A stretch of 64,000 bases of DNA from a virus. Its lineage: Duplodnaviria > Caudoviricetes. The stretch is taken from the IMG/VR virus record IMGVR_UViG_3300028909_000001. One strand, written 5' to 3'. A program made the translations under genes and the position numbers. This document shows, in pieces, positions 11,732 through 61,466 of the stretch (positions are counted from its first letter, which is position 1; every line of letters starts with the position of its first letter). Below the pieces are notes generated by a model that did not search any database, was not told where the DNA came from, and was given only the letters and a program-made list of their open reading frames with translations.

Positions 11732-12278
11732 AAATTCGAATACTGCTTTAATAGAGGAATTTTGCTATGAATTTGCTAAACAATGTAATTATGTGCTTAC
11801 TAAGAGTTTAAAAAGCCAGTTATATAATCCAGTTAGTAAAGCATTGGCTATTAGTAGAGAGTTAGAGGTAGAGCCAAAAGTCTATGTAGCAGCTCATGTC
11901 TATTTCTCTCCTTTATTAAAAGGTTATACTAAACTGACTCCAAATCAGCTGTATACTAGAGATTCCAAGACTTATGTTGAAGAATATCTTAAATTTGACA
12001 GACATATAGATAGAGAGTTTGAGACTCAATGTAGAATATTGGCTGAATGCCTGGATAATGGCTGGAAAGAAAGATTAGCTTTATTAAATTCTACTTTAGA
12101 CTTTTTACCCTGGTTTAGAGTATTAATATCTACGGAAAGAGATGAAGAAATTATTAGAGTATATAGTGATGTAGCTACTAATATGTTAAGAAATGATAAA
12201 CCTCTGCTAAACTATCTTAAGACAATTAAATCAGATAGTGGTCAGGGATTGGATTTTTCAAGGTTACCTAGATTATGA
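11721..12278 (+). CDS. Hypothetical protein in replication module
   Basis: 185-aa ORF between primase and DnaB. Confidence 0.65.
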   Translation: MYIENSNTALIEEFCYEFAKQCNYVLTKSLKSQLYNPVSKALAISRELEVEPKVYVAAHVYFSPLLKGYTKLTPNQLYTRDSKTYVEEYLKFDRHIDREFETQCRILAECLDNGWKERLALLNSTLDFLPWFRVLISTERDEEIIRVYSDVATNMLRNDKPLLNYLKTIKSDSGQGLDFSRLPRL

Positions 12279-14686
12279 ATGATACAAATTTTACTGAGCC
12301 TTTAACCGATGCTGATTTTTCGGAATTGTTGATTAGGCATATGCTATTATCTCCGGAAGTGAGTAATAAAGCTAAACAATTGAATATTGTAGGAGATGAT
12401 TTAGTATTGGATGATACTTATGGTAATCAAGTATATAAAGAGCTGGTAAATATCATTAATAGTATAGATGTTAGACCAGTGCCAGCTAATACATTGTTGG
12501 ATGGCTTAAAACATAAATTTGAGGATGGAACTTTAATTGATAGTTTAAAAGATAATACACTTGAACTATTTGAGTACTTCTATAATGCAGATAGGTTGTT
12601 GGAGAGTCCTGAGTTCTTTGATAGTAGATTGTTACCTTTCCTAAAGAATAGGAGGGCACAGAAGCTTATTAATAAGTATAGGGATGATGTTCATACCTTA
12701 ACCAGTGAATTAAATAAACTCAATTTAGATTTGGCTGGCGATTCTCCTATGAGCAGGCCTAGGGTGATGAATCCTTTTAGTAGTATCATATTCAAGACTA
12801 AGAGTAGTATGATAGGTACAGGTTTAAGTAAGCTGGATGAGAAGTTGGATGGTGGACTATTATCTAGTGAATATGCTATGTTGCTAGGATTTTCAGGTGG
12901 GGGTAAATGTCATGGAAAAGGTACTAAAATATTAATGTATGACGGTTCAATAAAGAATGTTGAAGATATTAAAGTGGGTGAATTACTAATGGGTAATGAT
13001 TCAACATCTAGAGAAGTACTTAGTTTGGCTAGGGGTAGTGAGCAAATGTATAAGGTAATTCCTGTTAAGGGGGAACCTTGGACTTGTAATGAATCTCATA
13101 TCCTTAGTTTAGTATGTAATACTCAATGTGGTTTTGGTTATCAATATGGTAAGGGAAATATAGTTAATATGACAGTTAAGGATTATTGTGCTCTAATAAG
13201 AACTAAGAAAGATTGTCTTAAATTATATCGAATTGGTGTTGATTATCCTGTTAAACCTTTGAATATGGACCCGTATATCTTCGGTTGTTGGATAGGAGAT
13301 GGAACACGAGCAGCACCGAAGATTACAAATACTGATCCAGAAATTATTAGTGTAATGATGGAATGGGCTAAAATCAATAAATATAAGGTCAGACAGTATG
13401 ATATTACTTATTGTTTTAGTAGAAAACCTGAAATAAATATATTTCGTAATGAAATAAAAAGAGCTAATGGTAATAATCAAAAGAGAATTCCTAGTGATTA
13501 TTTGATTAACTCTGAAAGTAATAGGTTGCAGTTATTAGCTGGTATTATAGATACTGATGGATATCTACATCATAACTTTTATGAAGTTGTAACTAAGTAT
13601 GAAGGTTTGAGTCAAGATATTCTTTATTTAGCTAGAAGTTTAGGGTTCGCAGCATATAGTTATCCTAAAATAGCTACTATGAAAAGAGAGGATGGATCAA
13701 TATACAGATGTAAAGTATATAGAGTTAATATAAGTGGACACGTAAATAAAATTCCATGTAAAGTTATTAGAAAGCGGGCTGGGATAAGACAGCAGATTAA
13801 AGATGTATTACATGTTGGTTTTACTGTTGAGCCTATAAACGATAGAGATTATTATGGTTTTGAATTATCAGGTAATCATCTTTATCTTTTGGGGGATTTT
13901 ACAGTAACACATAATACAGCTGTAGGTACTAATATGGTGGGTATATCTGCGGAAATGGGTAGAAAGGCGGTTTATATATCTTGTGAAGAGCATGAAGATG
14001 ATTTAAGCCAAAGATTCTATTCCAGAGTATTTAGAATACCATATAGACAATTAAGACAAGGTAGTGCTAATATAGAATTGGAATCAAAGTTTAATGAAGA
14101 ATTAACTACTGAGAAAATAAAATTTTTAAAAGATAATCTCTGTTTAATGGGTTTAAAGGGGATTGATGGTGCTATAACTCCTAATCTGCTATATGAATTG
14201 TTAAAACAAAACTATGAAGAAACTGGTTTTATACCAGAACTAGTAATGCTAGATCAATTACAATTCATAACTCCAGATGCACCTATAAGAAAGAATATGC
14301 AGACTTATGAGATTGAAGGTATGACTGCAGCTGAGTTAGACCAATTATCACATAAACAAATAGGTGGTAAAGGATTTGTATTGTGGGTACAGCATCAAGC
14401 TAAAGGCAAGACTAGGGCATATTTTACTATAGATGAAATTCAAGGTTATAAAGCAATAGTAAATAAGCCAGACTTGGTTTTAGGTGTAGGCAGAGCTGGT
14501 GATAAAAGTGATGAGATAAACTTGTTTCCTTTAAAAATAAGACATTCAGCTGACTTTAAAATAACTCTTAAGACTGAATTTGAATATATGACAGTAACAT
14601 CCACGTTAGTTACTAATGACTTACCATATCAAAATTCTACCATGACAGAAGTAGATCGTACTGGTATTAGACCAGTCACTTATTAA
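12275..14686 (+). CDS. dnaB: DnaB-like replicative helicase with intein
   Basis: Spliced Walker A GFSGGGK/T, YISCEE, LDQLQ, LKIRH; follows primase. Confidence 0.85.
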   Translation: MNDTNFTEPLTDADFSELLIRHMLLSPEVSNKAKQLNIVGDDLVLDDTYGNQVYKELVNIINSIDVRPVPANTLLDGLKHKFEDGTLIDSLKDNTLELFEYFYNADRLLESPEFFDSRLLPFLKNRRAQKLINKYRDDVHTLTSELNKLNLDLAGDSPMSRPRVMNPFSSIIFKTKSSMIGTGLSKLDEKLDGGLLSSEYAMLLGFSGGGKCHGKGTKILMYDGSIKNVEDIKVGELLMGNDSTSREVLSLARGSEQMYKVIPVKGEPWTCNESHILSLVCNTQCGFGYQYGKGNIVNMTVKDYCALIRTKKDCLKLYRIGVDYPVKPLNMDPYIFGCWIGDGTRAAPKITNTDPEIISVMMEWAKINKYKVRQYDITYCFSRKPEINIFRNEIKRANGNNQKRIPSDYLINSESNRLQLLAGIIDTDGYLHHNFYEVVTKYEGLSQDILYLARSLGFAAYSYPKIATMKREDGSIYRCKVYRVNISGHVNKIPCKVIRKRAGIRQQIKDVLHVGFTVEPINDRDYYGFELSGNHLYLLGDFTVTHNTAVGTNMVGISAEMGRKAVYISCEEHEDDLSQRFYSRVFRIPYRQLRQGSANIELESKFNEELTTEKIKFLKDNLCLMGLKGIDGAITPNLLYELLKQNYEETGFIPELVMLDQLQFITPDAPIRKNMQTYEIEGMTAAELDQLSHKQIGGKGFVLWVQHQAKGKTRAYFTIDEIQGYKAIVNKPDLVLGVGRAGDKSDEINLFPLKIRHSADFKITLKTEFEYMTVTSTLVTNDLPYQNSTMTEVDRTGIRPVTY
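12908..13915 (+). mobile_element. Intein (336 aa) with LAGLIDADG homing endonuclease
   Basis: Starts C(HGKGTKILMYDG), ends VTHN before extein Thr; WIGDG and LAGIIDTDG motifs; inserted in the P-loop. Confidence 0.92.
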
Positions 14687-41996: not shown

Positions 41997-42083
41997 GGCA
42001 GCATCGCATAATGGTATTGCCCCTCATTTGAAGTGAGAGTGCGGGTAACACCGGTGAGGGTTCGAGTCCTTCTGCTGCCTCCA
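41997..42083 (+). tRNA. tRNA-Ser(TGA)
   Basis: TTTGAAG loop, long variable arm, TTCGAGT, CCA. Confidence 0.88.
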
Positions 42084-52328: not shown

Positions 52329-52373
52329 TTCTACATAATAGTGATTTAATAATCGAAGACTAGACCCTTTCTT

Positions 52374-52781
52374 ATGACAATAACAAAAATAGCTAATAGA
52401 TGGTATGACGAAAACAATAATAGCTGGTTATCAGAAGAAGCAGCTACTCAATACTCACTTACCCTAACTAATTGTAGTAGGTGTAGTGATTGTAGTAATT
52501 GTATTGATTGTAGAGATTGTAGTAATTGGTGTAGTAATTGTAATAATTGTAGAGATTGTAGTTATTGTATATATTGTAGTGATTGTAGTTATTGTATATA
52601 TTGTATTGATTGTAATATTTGTAGTGATTGTAGTAGTTGTATTAATTGTAGTAATTGTAGTGATTGTAGAGATTGTAGTAGTTGTATTGATTGTAGTGAT
52701 TGTACTAATAATAAGAAGTATGAACCAGTAACTAGACCATTTATAGACTGTACTAACAGACTATTAGAACCAGATTTATGA
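52374..52781 (+). CDS. Cys-repeat family protein, copy 9 (RLLEPDL)
   Basis: Family architecture. Confidence 0.85.
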   Translation: MTITKIANRWYDENNNSWLSEEAATQYSLTLTNCSRCSDCSNCIDCRDCSNWCSNCNNCRDCSYCIYCSDCSYCIYCIDCNICSDCSSCINCSNCSDCRDCSSCIDCSDCTNNKKYEPVTRPFIDCTNRLLEPDL

Positions 52782-53026
52782 CAAATATCACAGTACGAGA
52801 TAAATATGACCAATCTATAGAAGTAGGAAATAATGTTATAGTAAAGTATTATGGCAGTATTTATAAAGGAACTGTCATTAATATTAAACTAATAAATAGT
52901 ACTGGGACTAGTACCAGTGATTTTTGTGCTCATTTAAGAGATTATTGGATTAAAGTTATCATCCATTCACCTATTAGAGGAGATAAAGAGATAACTAGTA
53001 AATCAGGAGAAATAATAAGAATATGA
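52778..53026 (+). CDS. Small SH3/KOW-like protein, untagged
   Basis: IEVGNNVIV...GTV pattern. Confidence 0.5.
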   Translation: MTNITVRDKYDQSIEVGNNVIVKYYGSIYKGTVINIKLINSTGTSTSDFCAHLRDYWIKVIIHSPIRGDKEITSKSGEIIRI

Positions 53027-53323
53027 AATATAATCTAGTTCAAATTCGTAGTCATATAAAGAATCAACTTCGTGTTTCCTTTGAAGAAATTGAAATAGAA
53101 GGTGAAGTAATAGAAATCAGTTCACCAATGAATACTGGATTTTATTATTGCCTGGCTAAAAGAGGCAAGAAATATGCTTTTGATAGATTAAAGAAACATT
53201 TAATAAAAATGTATGATAAAGAAATTACAAAGATAACAAAAGAGTTAGACATGCTTAAAGCCGTAGAATATCCACATCGAAAAATAAGACATTAATGATA
53301 GAAAGTTGGAACCAGACTTATGA
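53023..53323 (+). CDS. Hypothetical protein whose tag (DINDRKLEPDL) lies in the +1 frame
   Basis: Stop at 53293-53295; tag codons at 53288-53323 one base out of frame. Confidence 0.65.
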
Positions 53324-53751
53324 CAATAACAAAAAGAGCTGATAGATGGTATGACGAAAACGGTAATAGTTGGATAACTGAAGAACTAGCTACTACTGAC
53401 TCTCCTACCCTAACTAATTGTTATAATTGTAGAGGTTGTAGTAATTGTAGAGATTGTAGTTATTGTATATATTGTAGTGATTGTAGTAATTGTATTAGTT
53501 GTATTAGTTGTAGTGATTGTAGTAATTGTAGTAATTGTTATAGTTGTATTGATTGTAGTAATTGTAGTGATTGTTATAGTTGTAGAGATTGTAGTAGTTG
53601 TATTGATTGTAGTAGTTGTAGTGGTTGTAGAGATTGTAGTAATTGTAATAATTGTATTTATTGTAGTGATTGTACTAATAATAAGAAGTATGAACCAGTA
53701 ACTAGACCATTTATAGACTGTACTAACAGACTATTAGAACCAGATTTATGA
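53320..53751 (+). CDS. Cys-repeat family protein, copy 10 (RLLEPDL)
   Basis: Family architecture; last 92 nt identical to copy 9. Confidence 0.85.
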   Translation: MTITKRADRWYDENGNSWITEELATTDSPTLTNCYNCRGCSNCRDCSYCIYCSDCSNCISCISCSDCSNCSNCYSCIDCSNCSDCYSCRDCSSCIDCSSCSGCRDCSNCNNCIYCSDCTNNKKYEPVTRPFIDCTNRLLEPDL

Positions 53752-54593
53752 AAGCACATTGGATCATAGAAAATTTTACAGATTCGGAGGATTACAGGGA
53801 TTTAATTAAAGCAGTAAAAGATTTAGGCAAGGAATGCTTTGTAATAGATAAACGTAATCATTTTGATTTTAATCCTGCCTCATTTGTGGAAAATGAATGT
53901 GTAATAGTTCAAGGGTCAATTCAAATGGTTAAGAATATAGAATCTAGGTTACCTAAAAATTGCTTTCCCATCAAATATTGCACCTTCAACAATTATCTTT
54001 GCTCGGTTTACTATCCTAAATTAAAAGACTTCCTATTTAATGATAAGTATGTATTACTTCCGCTAAAAGAACTTAAAGAGAATAAGTTTGATTATTATCA
54101 GAAGTTTGGAAAAGAAGCACTTATATTTGTAAGACCGGATAGTGGAGAAAAGACATTTCAAGCCCAACTCTTAGATTTGCAGGATTTCGACAGATTTTGG
54201 ACTAACTCTATAGCTTCCAGTACTTTAGATGATGATTTAGTACTAGTTTCTACGCCTAAAGATATAATAGGTGAGTGGCGTTTTATATGTTCAAAGTATA
54301 ACGATGGGGAAATCATAACTCAATCTACTTATCGATATCAAGGCAAGTTATGTTATATACCTGCTGCACCTGTTAAAGCAACTGAACTTTGTAAAAATAT
54401 ATTAAAGGTTCAATATTACCCAGACTCTGTTTTTTGCATAGATATCTGCCAGGCTGGGGATAACAAGTTCTATTTATTAGAATTAACCTCCTTTTCTAGT
54501 GCTGGTCTATATGCTACCGATAAAAAGAAGATAGCAACTAGAGTAAGTGAAATAACCGAATTTGAATATGGAAGAGAAATATTCTATAGGTGA
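53748..54593 (+). CDS. ATP-grasp protein (R2K/DUF4343-like)
   Basis: FVRPDSGEKTF, GEWRF, FCIDI, LLELTSFSSAGLY. Confidence 0.75.
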   Translation: MKAHWIIENFTDSEDYRDLIKAVKDLGKECFVIDKRNHFDFNPASFVENECVIVQGSIQMVKNIESRLPKNCFPIKYCTFNNYLCSVYYPKLKDFLFNDKYVLLPLKELKENKFDYYQKFGKEALIFVRPDSGEKTFQAQLLDLQDFDRFWTNSIASSTLDDDLVLVSTPKDIIGEWRFICSKYNDGEIITQSTYRYQGKLCYIPAAPVKATELCKNILKVQYYPDSVFCIDICQAGDNKFYLLELTSFSSAGLYATDKKKIATRVSEITEFEYGREIFYR

Positions 54594-54810
54594 TCTTGTT
54601 GAATTATTAAATTTAGGTGAAGGGGAGATCGTCTCTATAAAAAACACTTATTATCATATGAGAATGTTGAATCATGTATCTATTGGTAAACGTGATTTAG
54701 ATCCGGGAGATATACTTAATGTGTGGCCTGACGAAATAGTAAAAAAGATAGTAATTCTAAGACCTGATTATAGTAACTTAGATGAAAGAAGAATTGATAT
54801 TGAATTATGA
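54562..54810 (+). CDS. SH3/KOW-like family protein with tag (RRIDIEL)
   Basis: YSIGDLV start. Confidence 0.65.
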   Translation: MNMEEKYSIGDLVELLNLGEGEIVSIKNTYYHMRMLNHVSIGKRDLDPGDILNVWPDEIVKKIVILRPDYSNLDERRIDIEL

Positions 54811-55055
54811 ATGATTATAAGGTAGGTGATGTGATTGAGGCTTTTTATGTAGCATCTATTTATTGTACAGGTAAAATAGTAGAATTTAAGTTTAAGGGAG
54901 TTCTCATACGTATACTAGAAGACATGAATTACAATGATATAATATGTTATCCTAGTAATACACAGTTATTTCTCCCATTTGAAAATATCATAGGGTTTAG
55001 TCAACTTATTAGAACAGAAAACATATATGAACGAAACCTTGACCCATATTTATAA
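54807..55055 (+). CDS. SH3/KOW-like family protein with tag (RNLDPYL)
   Basis: YKVGDVI start. Confidence 0.65.
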   Translation: MNDYKVGDVIEAFYVASIYCTGKIVEFKFKGVLIRILEDMNYNDIICYPSNTQLFLPFENIIGFSQLIRTENIYERNLDPYL

Positions 55056-55293
55056 TATAGGTGATGAAGTTAGTGGGAATTATGCACAATTAGCTGAGTT
55101 TAAAGGATTTATAGTATCATATAAATTTTATTTCAATAAACCTTGGTATTATGTACAGCTAACTGAACGCATATTTATACACAAAGAATTACCTATAGGT
55201 TGGATCATAGCTGTTTCAGAGATGGAAATTAAGGAAGTTAAAAAATTAAGAAAAGAAAACATATATGAGCGAAACCTTGACCCATATTTATAA
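55027..55293 (+). CDS. SH3/KOW-like family protein with tag (RNLDPYL)
   Basis: YNIGDEV; start overlaps previous tag. Confidence 0.65.
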   Translation: MNETLTHIYNIGDEVSGNYAQLAEFKGFIVSYKFYFNKPWYYVQLTERIFIHKELPIGWIIAVSEMEIKEVKKLRKENIYERNLDPYL

Positions 55294-55483
55294 TATAGGT
55301 GATGAGGTGGCATTTTATAGAGGTACTCATAGGTTTGAAGGTAGAATAATAAATAGCGCAGCATTTCATGATCATTGGTGTGTTCAATTATTGAACTCTA
55401 AATTTATGTCAGTACATAAACAATGTTGTAATAAAATTAGAAAAGAAAATCCTTTAGATAGGAAACTAGAGCTTGATTTATGA
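55265..55483 (+). CDS. SH3/KOW-like family protein with tag (RKLELDL)
   Basis: YNIGDEV; start overlaps previous tag. Confidence 0.65.
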   Translation: MSETLTHIYNIGDEVAFYRGTHRFEGRIINSAAFHDHWCVQLLNSKFMSVHKQCCNKIRKENPLDRKLELDL

Positions 55484-56037
55484 CAATAACTAAAAGAGAT
55501 AATAGATGGTTTGACGAAAACAATAATAGCTGGGATAGTGAAGAAGAAGCTACTCTATACTCACCTACCCTAACCGATTGTACTAGTTGTTTTAATTGTT
55601 ATAGTTGTATTGATTGTAGTAGTTGTATTGATTGTAGAGATTGTAGTAGTTGTATTGATTGTAGTAATTGTAGAGATTGTACTAGTTGTGATAGTTGTAG
55701 TGGTTGCATTGATTGTAGTGGTTGTGTTGATTGTAGAGATTGTAGTGGTTGTAGTGGTTGTATTTATTGTATATATTGTAGTGATTGTAGTGAGTGTTAT
55801 GGATGTAGAGATTGTAGTAATTGTAGTAATTGTTATAGTTGTATTGATTGTAGTAATTGTAGTGATTGTAGAGATTGTAATAATTGTAGAGATTGTAGTA
55901 GTTGTATTGATTGTAGAGATTGTAGTTATTGTAGTAGTTGTATTGGTTGTAATGACTGGACTAATAACATGAAATATGAACCGGTAATTAGACCATTTAT
56001 AGACTGTACTAACAGACTATTAGAACCAGACTTATGA
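55480..56037 (+). CDS. Cys-repeat family protein, copy 11, longest (RLLEPDL)
   Basis: Family architecture, 185 aa. Confidence 0.85.
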   Translation: MTITKRDNRWFDENNNSWDSEEEATLYSPTLTDCTSCFNCYSCIDCSSCIDCRDCSSCIDCSNCRDCTSCDSCSGCIDCSGCVDCRDCSGCSGCIYCIYCSDCSECYGCRDCSNCSNCYSCIDCSNCSDCRDCNNCRDCSSCIDCRDCSYCSSCIGCNDWTNNMKYEPVIRPFIDCTNRLLEPDL

Positions 56038-59262: not shown

Positions 59263-59591
59263 AACTAACAAAACGAGAAAATGATAGATTCTATGATGAA
59301 AACAATAATAGTTGGATAACAGAACAACTAGCTACTGTATATTCACCTACGCTGATTAATTGTAGATATTGTAGTGATTGTAGTAATTGTAGTAATTGTA
59401 GTAGTTGTATTAGTTGTTATATATGTGTTAATTGTAGTAATTGTAGTGAGTGTTATAGATGTAGAGATTGTATTAGTTTGTATAGACATTACAACGAAGA
59501 AAAATTAAAACCTCAGAAGTATGACACTGAAGATACTATAATAAGACCTGAACTTGACATTAATAATAGAAGACTTGAAATTGAACTATGA
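59259..59591 (+). CDS. Cys-repeat family protein, copy 13 (RRLEIEL)
   Basis: Family architecture; C-terminus shared with copy 12. Confidence 0.85.
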   Translation: MKLTKRENDRFYDENNNSWITEQLATVYSPTLINCRYCSDCSNCSNCSSCISCYICVNCSNCSECYRCRDCISLYRHYNEEKLKPQKYDTEDTIIRPELDINNRRLEIEL

Positions 59592-60568
59592 CCACCAATA
59601 ATTTAGAAGAATTTGGTACTAAACTACCAGAACATACAGCTAAATCTAATCAGATTATGATACCTGATGCTATCCTTTATGCTGCACCAGAAGAAATCAA
59701 TGTAGCTAATGGATCAGCTCAAACTCCTACTCAATGGACGGAGCCAGTTTCAGGAATGTTTTTATCCACACCTGAAACAATTAAGAAGTTACCGTCTAAT
59801 GTATATAAGTATGTAGCTTATTCAGATAATAAATGGGGTTTTCTGAAAGTTAATATCAATGTTGACGAACTACTATTACTACCTGATAGTACTTCAGATC
59901 TAGTACTTCAAGAGATTCAAACCTTTCTAGACAATGCGGAAACCTTTAAATACTATGATGTATTGCATAGAAGAGGGTTCTTATTCTATGGTCCAGCAGG
60001 TTCAGGCAAGACTTGCTTAGTACAACAAATCATTAAGAAGGTGATTGACCAGAATGGAGTGATTTTGCTTTGTGATAACCCACAAGCTATCGAACTAGGT
60101 TTAAGAGACCTTAGAGCAGTTGAGCCAGATAGATTCATAGTTTGTCTATTCGAAGATATTGATGCCTTGATTCAGAGATATGGAGAGAAGGAGATTCTTG
60201 CTATATTAGATGGTGAAAGTCAAATCAACAAAGTCTTGAATATAGGAACAACTAATTACCCTGAAGTATTGGATAGGAGAATCATTAGACCTCGTAGATT
60301 TGATATGGTGATTAAGATTGACTGGCCTAGTGAAGCAGTTAGACGACATTATTTTAAGAATAAGCTTAAGATTGATGACAAAGAACTGGGTAAGTGGGTT
60401 AACGCCACGGATAAGTTCTCCTTCGCTGCTTGTGCTGAGTTGATGATTAGTGTTAAATGTCTGGGTAAGGATTTTGAGAAAGCAGTGGAACATTTACGTG
60501 AATTAATGAAACATAAACCAGATAGCCGGGATTTTAACAGCCCTGCAGACTTTAATATAGGACATTAG
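59588..60568 (+). CDS. AAA+ ATPase (BCS1-like)
   Basis: RRGFLFYGPAGSGKT, FEDID, TTNYPEVLD, RPRRFD. Confidence 0.85.
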   Translation: MTTNNLEEFGTKLPEHTAKSNQIMIPDAILYAAPEEINVANGSAQTPTQWTEPVSGMFLSTPETIKKLPSNVYKYVAYSDNKWGFLKVNINVDELLLLPDSTSDLVLQEIQTFLDNAETFKYYDVLHRRGFLFYGPAGSGKTCLVQQIIKKVIDQNGVILLCDNPQAIELGLRDLRAVEPDRFIVCLFEDIDALIQRYGEKEILAILDGESQINKVLNIGTTNYPEVLDRRIIRPRRFDMVIKIDWPSEAVRRHYFKNKLKIDDKELGKWVNATDKFSFAACAELMISVKCLGKDFEKAVEHLRELMKHKPDSRDFNSPADFNIGH

Positions 60569-60575
60569 TTTTAAA

Positions 60576-60664
60576 GGATAGTTAACTAGTAAAGTTACTA
60601 GAACAGTTTACTAAACTGATTGCTCCTTAACTGGAGTGGGGAGCATTACCTCAGCTATCCTCCA
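60576..60664 (+). tRNA. tRNA-Ser with unusual ACT anticodon
   Basis: GGATAGT/GCTATCC acceptor (G1G2A3), CAGT-TTACTAA-ACTG, long variable arm, atypical T-loop AGCATTA, CCA. Confidence 0.7.
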
Positions 60665-60672
60665 ATTTACTT

Positions 60673-61140
60673 ATGAAACTAACAAAAAGATATAATAGAT
60701 GGTATGACGAAAATTATAATAGTTGGGATACTGAAGAATCAGCTACTCAATACTCACCTACCCTAACTAATTGTAGTAGGTGTAGTGATTGTAGATATTG
60801 TAGTCTTTGTAATTATTGTAGTAATTGTAGTAATTGTAATGATTGTATTACTTGTATTAATTGTAGTGATTGTACTCGTTGTATTAATTGTAGAGGTTGT
60901 ATTTGTTGTAATCAGTGTATAAGTTGTAGTGATTGTAGTAATTGTAGTAGGTGTACTAGTTGTAATCGTTGTAGCGGTTGTAGCGGTTGTAGTGATTGTA
61001 CTCGTTGTATTGATTGTAGTTGGTGTAGTTTACTTATAGATAGAATAAGATTTTTCCCACAAACTGGCCCTGACAACTCGGAACTAATAACTAGAAAAGA
61101 AATAGCATTAACAGATCGAAATCTGGAACCATTTTTATGA
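60673..61140 (+). CDS. Cys-repeat family protein, copy 14 (RNLEPFL)
   Basis: Family architecture. Confidence 0.85.
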   Translation: MKLTKRYNRWYDENYNSWDTEESATQYSPTLTNCSRCSDCRYCSLCNYCSNCSNCNDCITCINCSDCTRCINCRGCICCNQCISCSDCSNCSRCTSCNRCSGCSGCSDCTRCIDCSWCSLLIDRIRFFPQTGPDNSELITRKEIALTDRNLEPFL

Positions 61141-61466
61141 AAATAAAACCAGGCTTTGAAGAAGAATTTGAAGTAGCCAAGACTTTAATACATAAACATA
61201 CTGATGCTATAATCAAATATGTTAATGATTGGAGTTTGGCGATGGAGAACTGTATAGCTGAAGGTCAATCATTAAAAGATATAGCCATGCCTTTAAGTGA
61301 ACAGATTTCTATTATAGATAGCAGGCCTGACCATGTTAAAGTTATGGCCGCTATACTATTAATGAACTGTTGGATTTATGGGGATGAGTTGACTGAGATA
61401 TTTCATCCTAGCCACCTTAACTTTGAGCTGGAACTGCTAAAACAATTAAAGTTTGCTAATTACTAG
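61137..61466 (+). CDS. Hypothetical protein
   Basis: 109-aa ORF, WIYGDEL. Confidence 0.55.
   Translation: MKIKPGFEEEFEVAKTLIHKHTDAIIKYVNDWSLAMENCIAEGQSLKDIAMPLSEQISIIDSRPDHVKVMAAILLMNCWIYGDELTEIFHPSHLNFELELLKQLKFANY

Follow-up and report, generated by a model that had tools for sequence, protein, structure and literature searches.

An (8/4)-type serine tRNA gene with the anticodon ACU in a large uncultured phage

Does a phage gene that resembles a serine tRNA and carries the anticodon ACU encode a working decoder of AGU codons, and is it tied to the AGT-rich gene that follows it? This question is raised by a stretch of 64,000 nucleotides (the window), which spans positions 21525-85524 of a virus record in IMG/VR (IMGVR_UViG_3300028909_000001, 85.7 kb) with a CheckV completeness of 39%. 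The source is a large uncultured phage, the G+C content of the window is 33.2% and nearly every gene lies on the + strand. In the original prediction, a tRNA with serine hallmarks, a long variable arm and an ACT anticodon had been recognized, all of which are borne out by the sequence, by ARAGORN at a relaxed threshold (-ps90) and by RNAfold. It had further been proposed that this tRNA is tuned to the Cys-repeat genes of the phage or withstands host anticodon nucleases, its function being considered doubtful in view of U73 and an odd T-loop.

The gene and its surroundings

Table 1. Features of the tRNA-Ser(ACU) gene, its neighbours and other tRNAs of the window (positions in the window)
Feature	Position	Strand	Basis or remark
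tRNA-Ser(ACU), (8/4)-type class II, 89 nt	60576..60664	+	ARAGORN -ps90, RNAfold cloverleaf, R1/R2 covariance models
Acceptor stem, 5' strand, 8 bp, starting G1G2A3; pairs with 60653-60660	60576..60583	+	U8-A pair in MFE fold
D arm, CTAG/CTAG stem, A18-G19 in place of G18-G19	60586..60601	+	
Anticodon ACT (A34 C35 U36), loop TT-ACT-AA	60610..60612	+	Sequence, ARAGORN
Long variable arm: stem of 5 bp with G.U as closing pair, loop of 6 nt	60622..60637	+	Fold, family alignment
T arm, 4-bp stem GGGG/CCTC, loop AGCATTA (A54 G55 C56 A57 U58)	60638..60652	+	
Discriminator U73 and genome-encoded CCA	60661..60664	+	
AAA+ ATPase gene, synteny anchor	59588..60568	+	Pfam PF00004; 609 homologues at E<=1e-20
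Cys-ladder protein copy 14, 155 aa	60673..61140	+	phrog_15341 at E = 8e-18
Canonical (7/5) tRNA-Ser(UGA), U73-CCA end	41997..42083	+	
tRNA-Ala(UGC) and tRNA-Lys(CUU), AGCRTWA T-loops, A18-G19 D-loop	35076..35225	+	

The RNA is predicted by RNAfold to form a cloverleaf with a long extra arm (-29.2 kcal/mol, z = -3.46) in which all helices are intact (Table 1). The variable arm is ~17 nt long, and the T-loop occupies positions 60642-60648. RNAfold allows the D stem to reach 6 bp, capped by an AAGT tetraloop; what the family described below conserves is a stem of 4 bp with an 8-nt loop. A partition of the acceptor and T stems into 8 and 4 bp is favoured over the canonical 7/5 partition by 1.5 kcal/mol, the MFE structure pairing U8 with A78. 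Since U8, U62 and A78 permit both folds when the window tRNA is taken alone, its 8/4 assignment rests on homology.

Standard tools do not report this gene. Default ARAGORN makes no call for it, and neither Rfam RF00005 nor the tRNA-Sec model matches it at E<=10, even with 109 nt alone as query. The ARAGORN check that had been suggested is thus negative at default settings and positive at the 90% threshold (-ps90), where tRNA-Ser(act) is called with a length of 89 nt and exact ends at 60576-60664; Markov shuffles of the 85.7-kb record yield ~0.35 such calls per genome, counting both strands. At relaxed thresholds, 22 tRNAs are found on the + strand between 32 and 64 kb (32816-61545), seven of which (Asp, two Met, Ile, Ala, Lys-CUU and Ser-ACU) are called only once the threshold is lowered to -ps95 or -ps90, and Rfam RF00005 at E<=1 lists 14 of the 22. 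The 85.7-kb record, which represents ~39% of the genome, contains no tRNA-Ser(GCU), Cys, His or Trp, so that tRNA-Ser(ACU) is its sole AGY-box tRNA; a tRNA-Ser(GCU) could be encoded elsewhere in the genome. A sibling contig (L091) extends past the end of the window and carries a tRNA-Ile(UAU) ~4 kb beyond it (L091:19351-19423). This extension likewise holds no Cys, His, Trp or Ser(GCU) tRNA, and the tRNA-Cys for which the original prediction had recommended a search was found in neither sequence. The class II synthetase core domain to whose family SerRS belongs (Pfam PF00587) is not encoded in the 85.7-kb record.

The gene fills the interval between the AAA+ ATPase gene, which ends with its stop codon at 60566-60568, and copy 14 of the Cys-ladder genes, which starts with an ATG at 60673; the spacers measure 7 nt on the upstream side and 8 nt after the CCA end, the latter as had been noted. 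Copy 14, one of 14 Cys-repeat paralogs, has no Pfam family match and uses AGT for 15 of its 20 Ser codons. Just downstream of it, a 109-aa protein (61137-61466, +) matches the Pfam family Tad4 (PF25186, E = 4e-11), a type I Thoeris inhibitor; genes of anti-defence type are thus present within the tRNA region. Several Cys-ladder genes begin at ATGA overlaps, the preceding genes ending in a common R-x-L-E-x-x-L tail, and a Shine-Dalgarno-like motif is absent upstream of all 14. At a distance from this locus, an 803-aa protein (12275-14686, +) combines Hint and LAGLIDADG homing-endonuclease domains and corresponds to an intein, apparently in an ATPase or helicase host protein. A scan for promoters and terminators gave no signal above shuffles. 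Among GenBank phages, blastn with the locus and with the tRNA found no relatives and tblastn with the Cys-ladder protein gave no match; an IMG/VR search anchored on the DNA polymerase returned no close relatives.

Relation to the (8/4) serine tRNAs

The (8/4) tRNA-Ser or allo-tRNA class of bacteria and phages has been described by Mukai et al. (2017, Nucleic Acids Res 45:2776, PMC5389517). Members are reported to function in E. coli translation and to be accepted by SerRS (PMC5389517; 2020 review PMC7609411), an enzyme which does not read the anticodon (PMC5389517). The window gene resembles them in its 12-bp acceptor branch split 8/4, its long D stem with a possible tetraloop, its long variable arm and extended anticodon stem, its discriminator (G73 or U73 in the class, here U73), its serine anticodon and its location in a phage tRNA cluster.

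This resemblance is supported by covariance models. R1, built from the window tRNA sequence alone, scores the (8/4) tRNA-Ser genes of two related jumbo phages at 40-58 bits and canonical Ser(GCU) genes at 16-25 bits; family homology overall lies at 40-100 bits. Like the window tRNA, the genes matched by R1 extend the acceptor stem by an eighth pair and have D and T stems of 4 bp each, an AA linker, a mismatch at 27:43 and a variable arm closed by G.U. A pattern scan of IMG/VR with GCT in the anticodon loop, filtered by R2, returned 112 matches, of which 87 are distinct, from 80 loci (L217-L296, alignment A11). As an observation in its own right, (8/4) tRNA-Ser genes are common in large IMG/VR phages, often with several per cluster. 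Of the 87 distinct members, default ARAGORN detects 19, and escaping standard tRNA finders is typical of the family.

Covariation points to a maintained structure. In a five-member MAFFT alignment, all 125 cells hold standard pairs and compensatory changes are seen at 15 of the 25 pairs; the ten-member alignment has 98% of its cells paired and such changes at 16 of 20 pairs. None of 500 shuffles reaches the values of either alignment, and slid controls pair at 34-46%. In the ten-member alignment, the eighth pair flips twice from U-A to A-U, the 7/5 alternative being broken in both sequences. The alignment of 87 members was fitted to the model and hence is biased towards its structure; with this bias, the eighth acceptor pair is AU in 31 members, GC in 23, UA in 18 and CG in 6, and is unpaired in 7, the 7/5 alternative pair is possible in 31, and the G.U pair closing the variable arm is found in 79. 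When a relative was subjected to random AT-biased decay up to the observed divergence, 13.6 +/- 2.3 of 25 pairs survived, and none of 20,000 trials left more than 22. Collectively, these data indicate that the structure is under selection and that, judging from alignment and fold, neither decay nor chance folding accounts for the gene: it is a genuine tRNA-like gene, serine in its architecture, and a member of the (8/4) tRNA-Ser class.

Synteny relates the locus to canonical serine tRNAs as well. AAA-ATPase homologues occur by the hundreds on jumbo-phage-sized contigs. The two closest relatives from metagenomes, L011 (61% identity) and L012 (55%), carry tRNA-Leu(UAA), AAA ATPase and tRNA-Ser(GCU) in this order. 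Since both relatives carry tRNA-Ser(GCU) there, the position after the AAA ATPase is an AGY-serine slot. Two other IMG/VR relatives (L129 and L130) have the AAA ATPase flanked by four Ser tRNAs (UGA, GCU, CGA and GGA) within 5 kb, the AAA-ATPase/tRNA-Ser neighbourhood being recurrent across these four sequences. The tRNA-Ser(GCU) of L011 and L012 is canonical, with a 7/5 partition, a GG D-loop, a TTC T-loop and G73. The window tRNA shares with such canonical genes the AGY box, the slot and a mismatched 27:43 pair; in contrast to them, it has an extra nucleotide before the D stem, making it 8/4 and not 7/5, lacks G18 and U55, carries U73 instead of G73 and A34 instead of G34, and obtains no Rfam tRNA score. 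Decay from the canonical tRNA-Ser(GCU) found in the syntenic position was also considered and is ruled out by membership of the separate (8/4) lineage: the two types are separate lineages because one relative (G005), among the phages matched by R1, carries both kinds of tRNA-Ser(GCU) side by side.

U73 and the T-loop, which had been taken as grounds for doubting function, lose this weight, as both recur in the family. U73-CCA ends are present in 12 of the 87 members, A54/U58 in 17 and G55 in five, all five having A18; one member has the T-loop AGCATTC, against AGCATTA in the window tRNA. Each of these traits occurs in the (8/4) family, but the combination of U73, A18/G55 and A54/U58 in one molecule, as in the window tRNA, was not seen among the members recovered. 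Compared with a canonical bacterial-type tRNA (G18-G19, T54-Psi55-C56), the window tRNA has A18-G19 and A54-G55-C56. Across the 22 phage tRNAs, the class of T-loop covaries with D-loop positions 18-19 (TTC with GG, TGC with AG, TTG with GC, AGCRTWA with AG), the last class comprising Ala, Lys-CUU and Ser-ACU. Because of this covariation, the odd T-loop can be understood as a coherent elbow variant and not as damage, which suggests that the elbows of the phage tRNAs have been rewired yet remain intact. Similarly, both Ser tRNAs of the phage, the canonical UGA and the (8/4) ACU, have U73, whereas G73 is found in all 20 Ser tRNAs of phages related through the AAA ATPase. The presence of U73 in both may reflect the host SerRS or a common pressure on the acceptor end.

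The anticodon and the AGT codons

What sets the window tRNA apart is its wobble base. The anticodons of the 87 family members are GCU (49), UGA (15), GGA (15) and CGA (8), the excess of GCU reflecting the search pattern, and A34 occurs in none. It is also absent from nine other 8/4-type and 12 canonical-type Ser tRNAs in 71 AAA-related phage records. Among ~97 other family sequences, none has A34, the window lineage being the sole exception, and IMG/VR pattern scans with ACT replacing GCT retrieved this lineage only, apart from chance matches rejected by R2. The search for relatives with the same anticodon recommended earlier thus led only to a sibling. A literature search for tRNA-Ser(ACU/ACT) gave, among the matches listed, only papers that were eukaryotic, organellar or unrelated. 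Apart from position 34, the anticodon loop is that of the family (TT-GCT-AA). A34, on a known (8/4) tRNA-Ser scaffold, is the sole feature unique to the window lineage in the family recovered.

The sibling (IMGVR_UViG_3300037172_000055) is 95.6-98.4% identical to the window over aligned blocks, differs by 2.16% overall and carries an identical 89-nt Ser(ACU) gene. The original prediction had envisaged that homologues might carry GCT and that ACT might be a base-call error. Homologues do carry GCU or another standard Ser anticodon, but a base-call error is excluded since the same 89 nt are present in an independent assembly ~2% diverged. The 21 tRNAs common to both phages contain a single difference over 1,625 nt, against a divergence of 2.16% for the region around them; as a class, and with the seven sub-threshold ones included, these tRNAs are ~35-fold more conserved than their surroundings. 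For the Ser(ACU) gene by itself the evidence is weak: 0 of 89 nt differ where ~1.9 differences are expected (P ~0.15), and the flanking AAA gene is identical too. As the nearest non-sibling family member is 72% identical, the change from G34 to A cannot be dated. Elsewhere, the sibling lacks a segment of ~3.4 kb that separates two Cys-ladder paralogs (window 52347-55714, by comparison with L003/L091), and its other differences concentrate in Cys-ladder genes, a pattern consistent with recombination among the Cys-ladder copies.

The meaning of AGT was assessed with the four AGT codons of the AAA ATPase, two of which are at conserved sites. These two align with invariant or near-invariant Ser, at position 288 in 17 of 17 homologues and at position 101 in 15 of 17, and AGT, as judged from this alignment, means Ser in the phage. 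Recoding of AGT to Cys, considered given that U73 is a CysRS identity element, is ruled out by this alignment and by the frequency of U73 in the Ser family.

AGT is the commonest Ser codon of the 120 ordinary genes (529 of 1392, AGC accounting for 96) and is used for 243 of the 282 Ser codons in the 14 Cys-ladder genes. Inside the Cys tracts it reaches 222 of 228 Ser codons; outside them, in the same genes, it falls to 21 of 54, which is the genomic baseline. AGT had been reported as the commonest non-Cys codon of the 14 Cys-repeat cores, and the counts at the x positions of the C-x-x-C cores agree (AGT 217, AAT 103, GAT 98). The ratio of AGT to AGC is 772:104 overall, AGU making up 88% of AGY codons. 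In ordinary genes this ratio is 5.5 and, since it lies inside the range of 3.1-7.0 of the other NNT:NNC pairs, codon usage bears no signature of an AGU-only tRNA.

The abundance of AGT in the tracts is related to base composition. On the coding strand, the C content is 2.5% in the Cys tracts (e.g., 60772-61030), 15.8% elsewhere in these genes and 13.6% in the window. AGT is the sole C-free Ser codon, and TGT, AGA, AAT, GAT and TAT are likewise free of C; the common amino acids of the tracts are only those with C-free codons. The monopolies of AGT, TGT and AGA can thus be ascribed to the tracts being nearly C-free, a DNA-level property, whatever its cause. Regarding the proposal that the tRNA is tuned to the repeat genes, the heavy use of AGT in the tracts stands, but a special link does not, given these C-poor tracts, the predominance of AGT in ordinary genes too and the frequency of such neighbours. 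Of the 12 Cys-ladder genes in the tRNA region, three are preceded by a tRNA (Asp, Thr or Ser) at a distance of 40 nt or less, where ~2.8 are expected by chance for random neighbours among 22 tRNAs and 71 ORFs. A functional coupling of tRNA-Ser(ACU) to copy 14 through adjacency is ruled out, adjacency being at chance level.

Competing readings and significance

We consider it somewhat better than an even bet that tRNA-Ser(ACU) is a working (8/4) serine tRNA which reads AGU, and probably only AGU, its expression, processing, serylation, modification state and decoding being inferred. In this AT-rich lineage (33% G+C), the wobble base of an (8/4) tRNA-Ser would have changed from G34 to A34. The gene would be transcribed together with the co-oriented array of tRNAs and accessory genes, and the RNA, with its genome-encoded CCA, would be excised by host tRNA-processing enzymes. 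The host SerRS would then recognize its variable arm and acceptor end and charge it with serine; because SerRS ignores the anticodon, the RNA should still carry serine. A34, most likely unmodified, would pair with AGU in Watson-Crick fashion and the rare AGC would be left to the host tRNA-Ser(GCU). The tRNA would serve the translation of all phage proteins, AGU being the Ser codon used most often, and would be in especially high demand from the Cys-ladder genes, whose C-free tracts allow Ser only as AGT; its position beside copy 14 would be incidental.

An unmodified A34 can read beyond U, and misreading of AGA or AGG is a risk in a split codon box. Natural A34 tRNAs include tRNA-Arg(ACG), in which TadA converts A34 to I34, and the tRNA-Thr(AGU) of Mycoplasma, whose A34 stays unmodified. 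Like them, the window gene encodes its wobble adenosine genomically; unlike them, it serves a split AGY/AGR box and not a four-codon box in which broad reading is harmless, so that inosine or a promiscuous A34 would place Ser at Arg codons. The absence of A34 in ~97 other family sequences would be expected if it is usually selected against. The intact structure could reflect selection exerted before a recent, neutral or mildly harmful change from G34 to A. A stronger version, to which we give limited credence, holds ACU to be an adaptation: an AGU-only decoder with unmodified A34, the first kept in a split box of a bacterial system, which frees translation of the C-free Cys ladders from the host tRNA-Ser(GCU) and which, with U73 and the rewired elbow, could also hide from host tRNA-targeting defence.

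Several other explanations have to be weighed against the reading as a working tRNA. The gene might be a recent anticodon mutant drifting from use, with the host tRNA-Ser(GCU) doing the work and the RNA perhaps still made and charged. A34 is indeed unique among the ~97 family sequences and the IMG/VR pattern scans, G to A is the favoured direction in a genome of 33% G+C, the change is undatable with the nearest non-sibling at 72% identity, and 0 of 89 differences from the sibling is not significant alone. Yet serine identity is independent of the anticodon, so that Ser would still be inserted at a Ser codon and little would be lost; AGU makes up 88% of AGY codons, no stem is damaged and the tRNA class is ~35-fold more conserved than its surroundings. 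We regard this explanation as unlikely but worth keeping in view. Deamination of A34 to inosine by the host TadA, after which the tRNA would read AGU, AGC and also AGA, seems very unlikely. The natural TadA substrate is tRNA-Arg(ACG), with the loop U33-A34-C35-G36-A37, and the window tRNA retains four of these five bases (U33-A34-C35 and A37), but position 36 is U, not G, and I34 would read as Ser the main Arg codon of the phage, AGA (490 in ordinary genes and 106 in Cys-ladder genes). The sole deaminase in the record is ComEB/dCMP-deaminase-like (78.9 bits compared with 25.6 for TadA), which argues against this editing and, as far as the record reaches, against a phage-encoded TadA.

A role other than decoding, either as a processing signal between the AAA-ATPase and Cys-ladder messages or as a decoy or resistant substitute against host tRNA-targeting defence, would agree with a tRNA filling its intergenic gap almost exactly (spacers of 7 and 8 nt) and with anti-defence-type genes in the region, including the Tad4-like gene at 61137-61466. 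It is also in line with the nuclease-escaping phage tRNAs described by van den Berg et al. (2023, eLife 12:e85183, PMC10264068), who proposed that changes in the anticodon loop allow phage tRNAs to escape host anticodon nucleases. Like these, the window tRNA differs from its relatives in the anticodon loop and lies in a region with anti-defence genes; however, the changes they described flank the anticodon and keep its reading, whereas here the wobble base itself is changed. Moreover, the anticodon loop is a canonical 7-nt loop which keeps U33 and A37 and equals that of decoding relatives save at position 34, and U73 changed in parallel with the other phage Ser tRNA, which suggests common aminoacylation constraints. 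To our knowledge, no nuclease specific for tRNA-Ser(GCU) at G34 has been described, and we judge such a role improbable. Finally, that default ARAGORN and Rfam miss the gene might point to a chance cloverleaf or an assembly artefact, an explanation effectively refuted by family homology at 40-100 bits, covariation, an identical copy in an independent assembly and an expectation of only ~0.35 chance calls per genome.

If tRNA-Ser(ACU) works, it would represent a natural wobble adenosine in a two-codon box, an arrangement which bacterial decoding normally avoids, and would show how far the retuning of decoding by a phage can reach when its base composition differs from that of its host. Independently of this, as (8/4) Ser tRNAs are common in large phages and mostly missed by standard finders, tRNA inventories and analyses of codon supply undercount them. 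With the comparisons of A34 with G34 and of U73 with G73, tRNA-Ser(ACU) offers a clean system in which to test how SerRS recognizes a non-canonical scaffold and what wobble rules hold on it.
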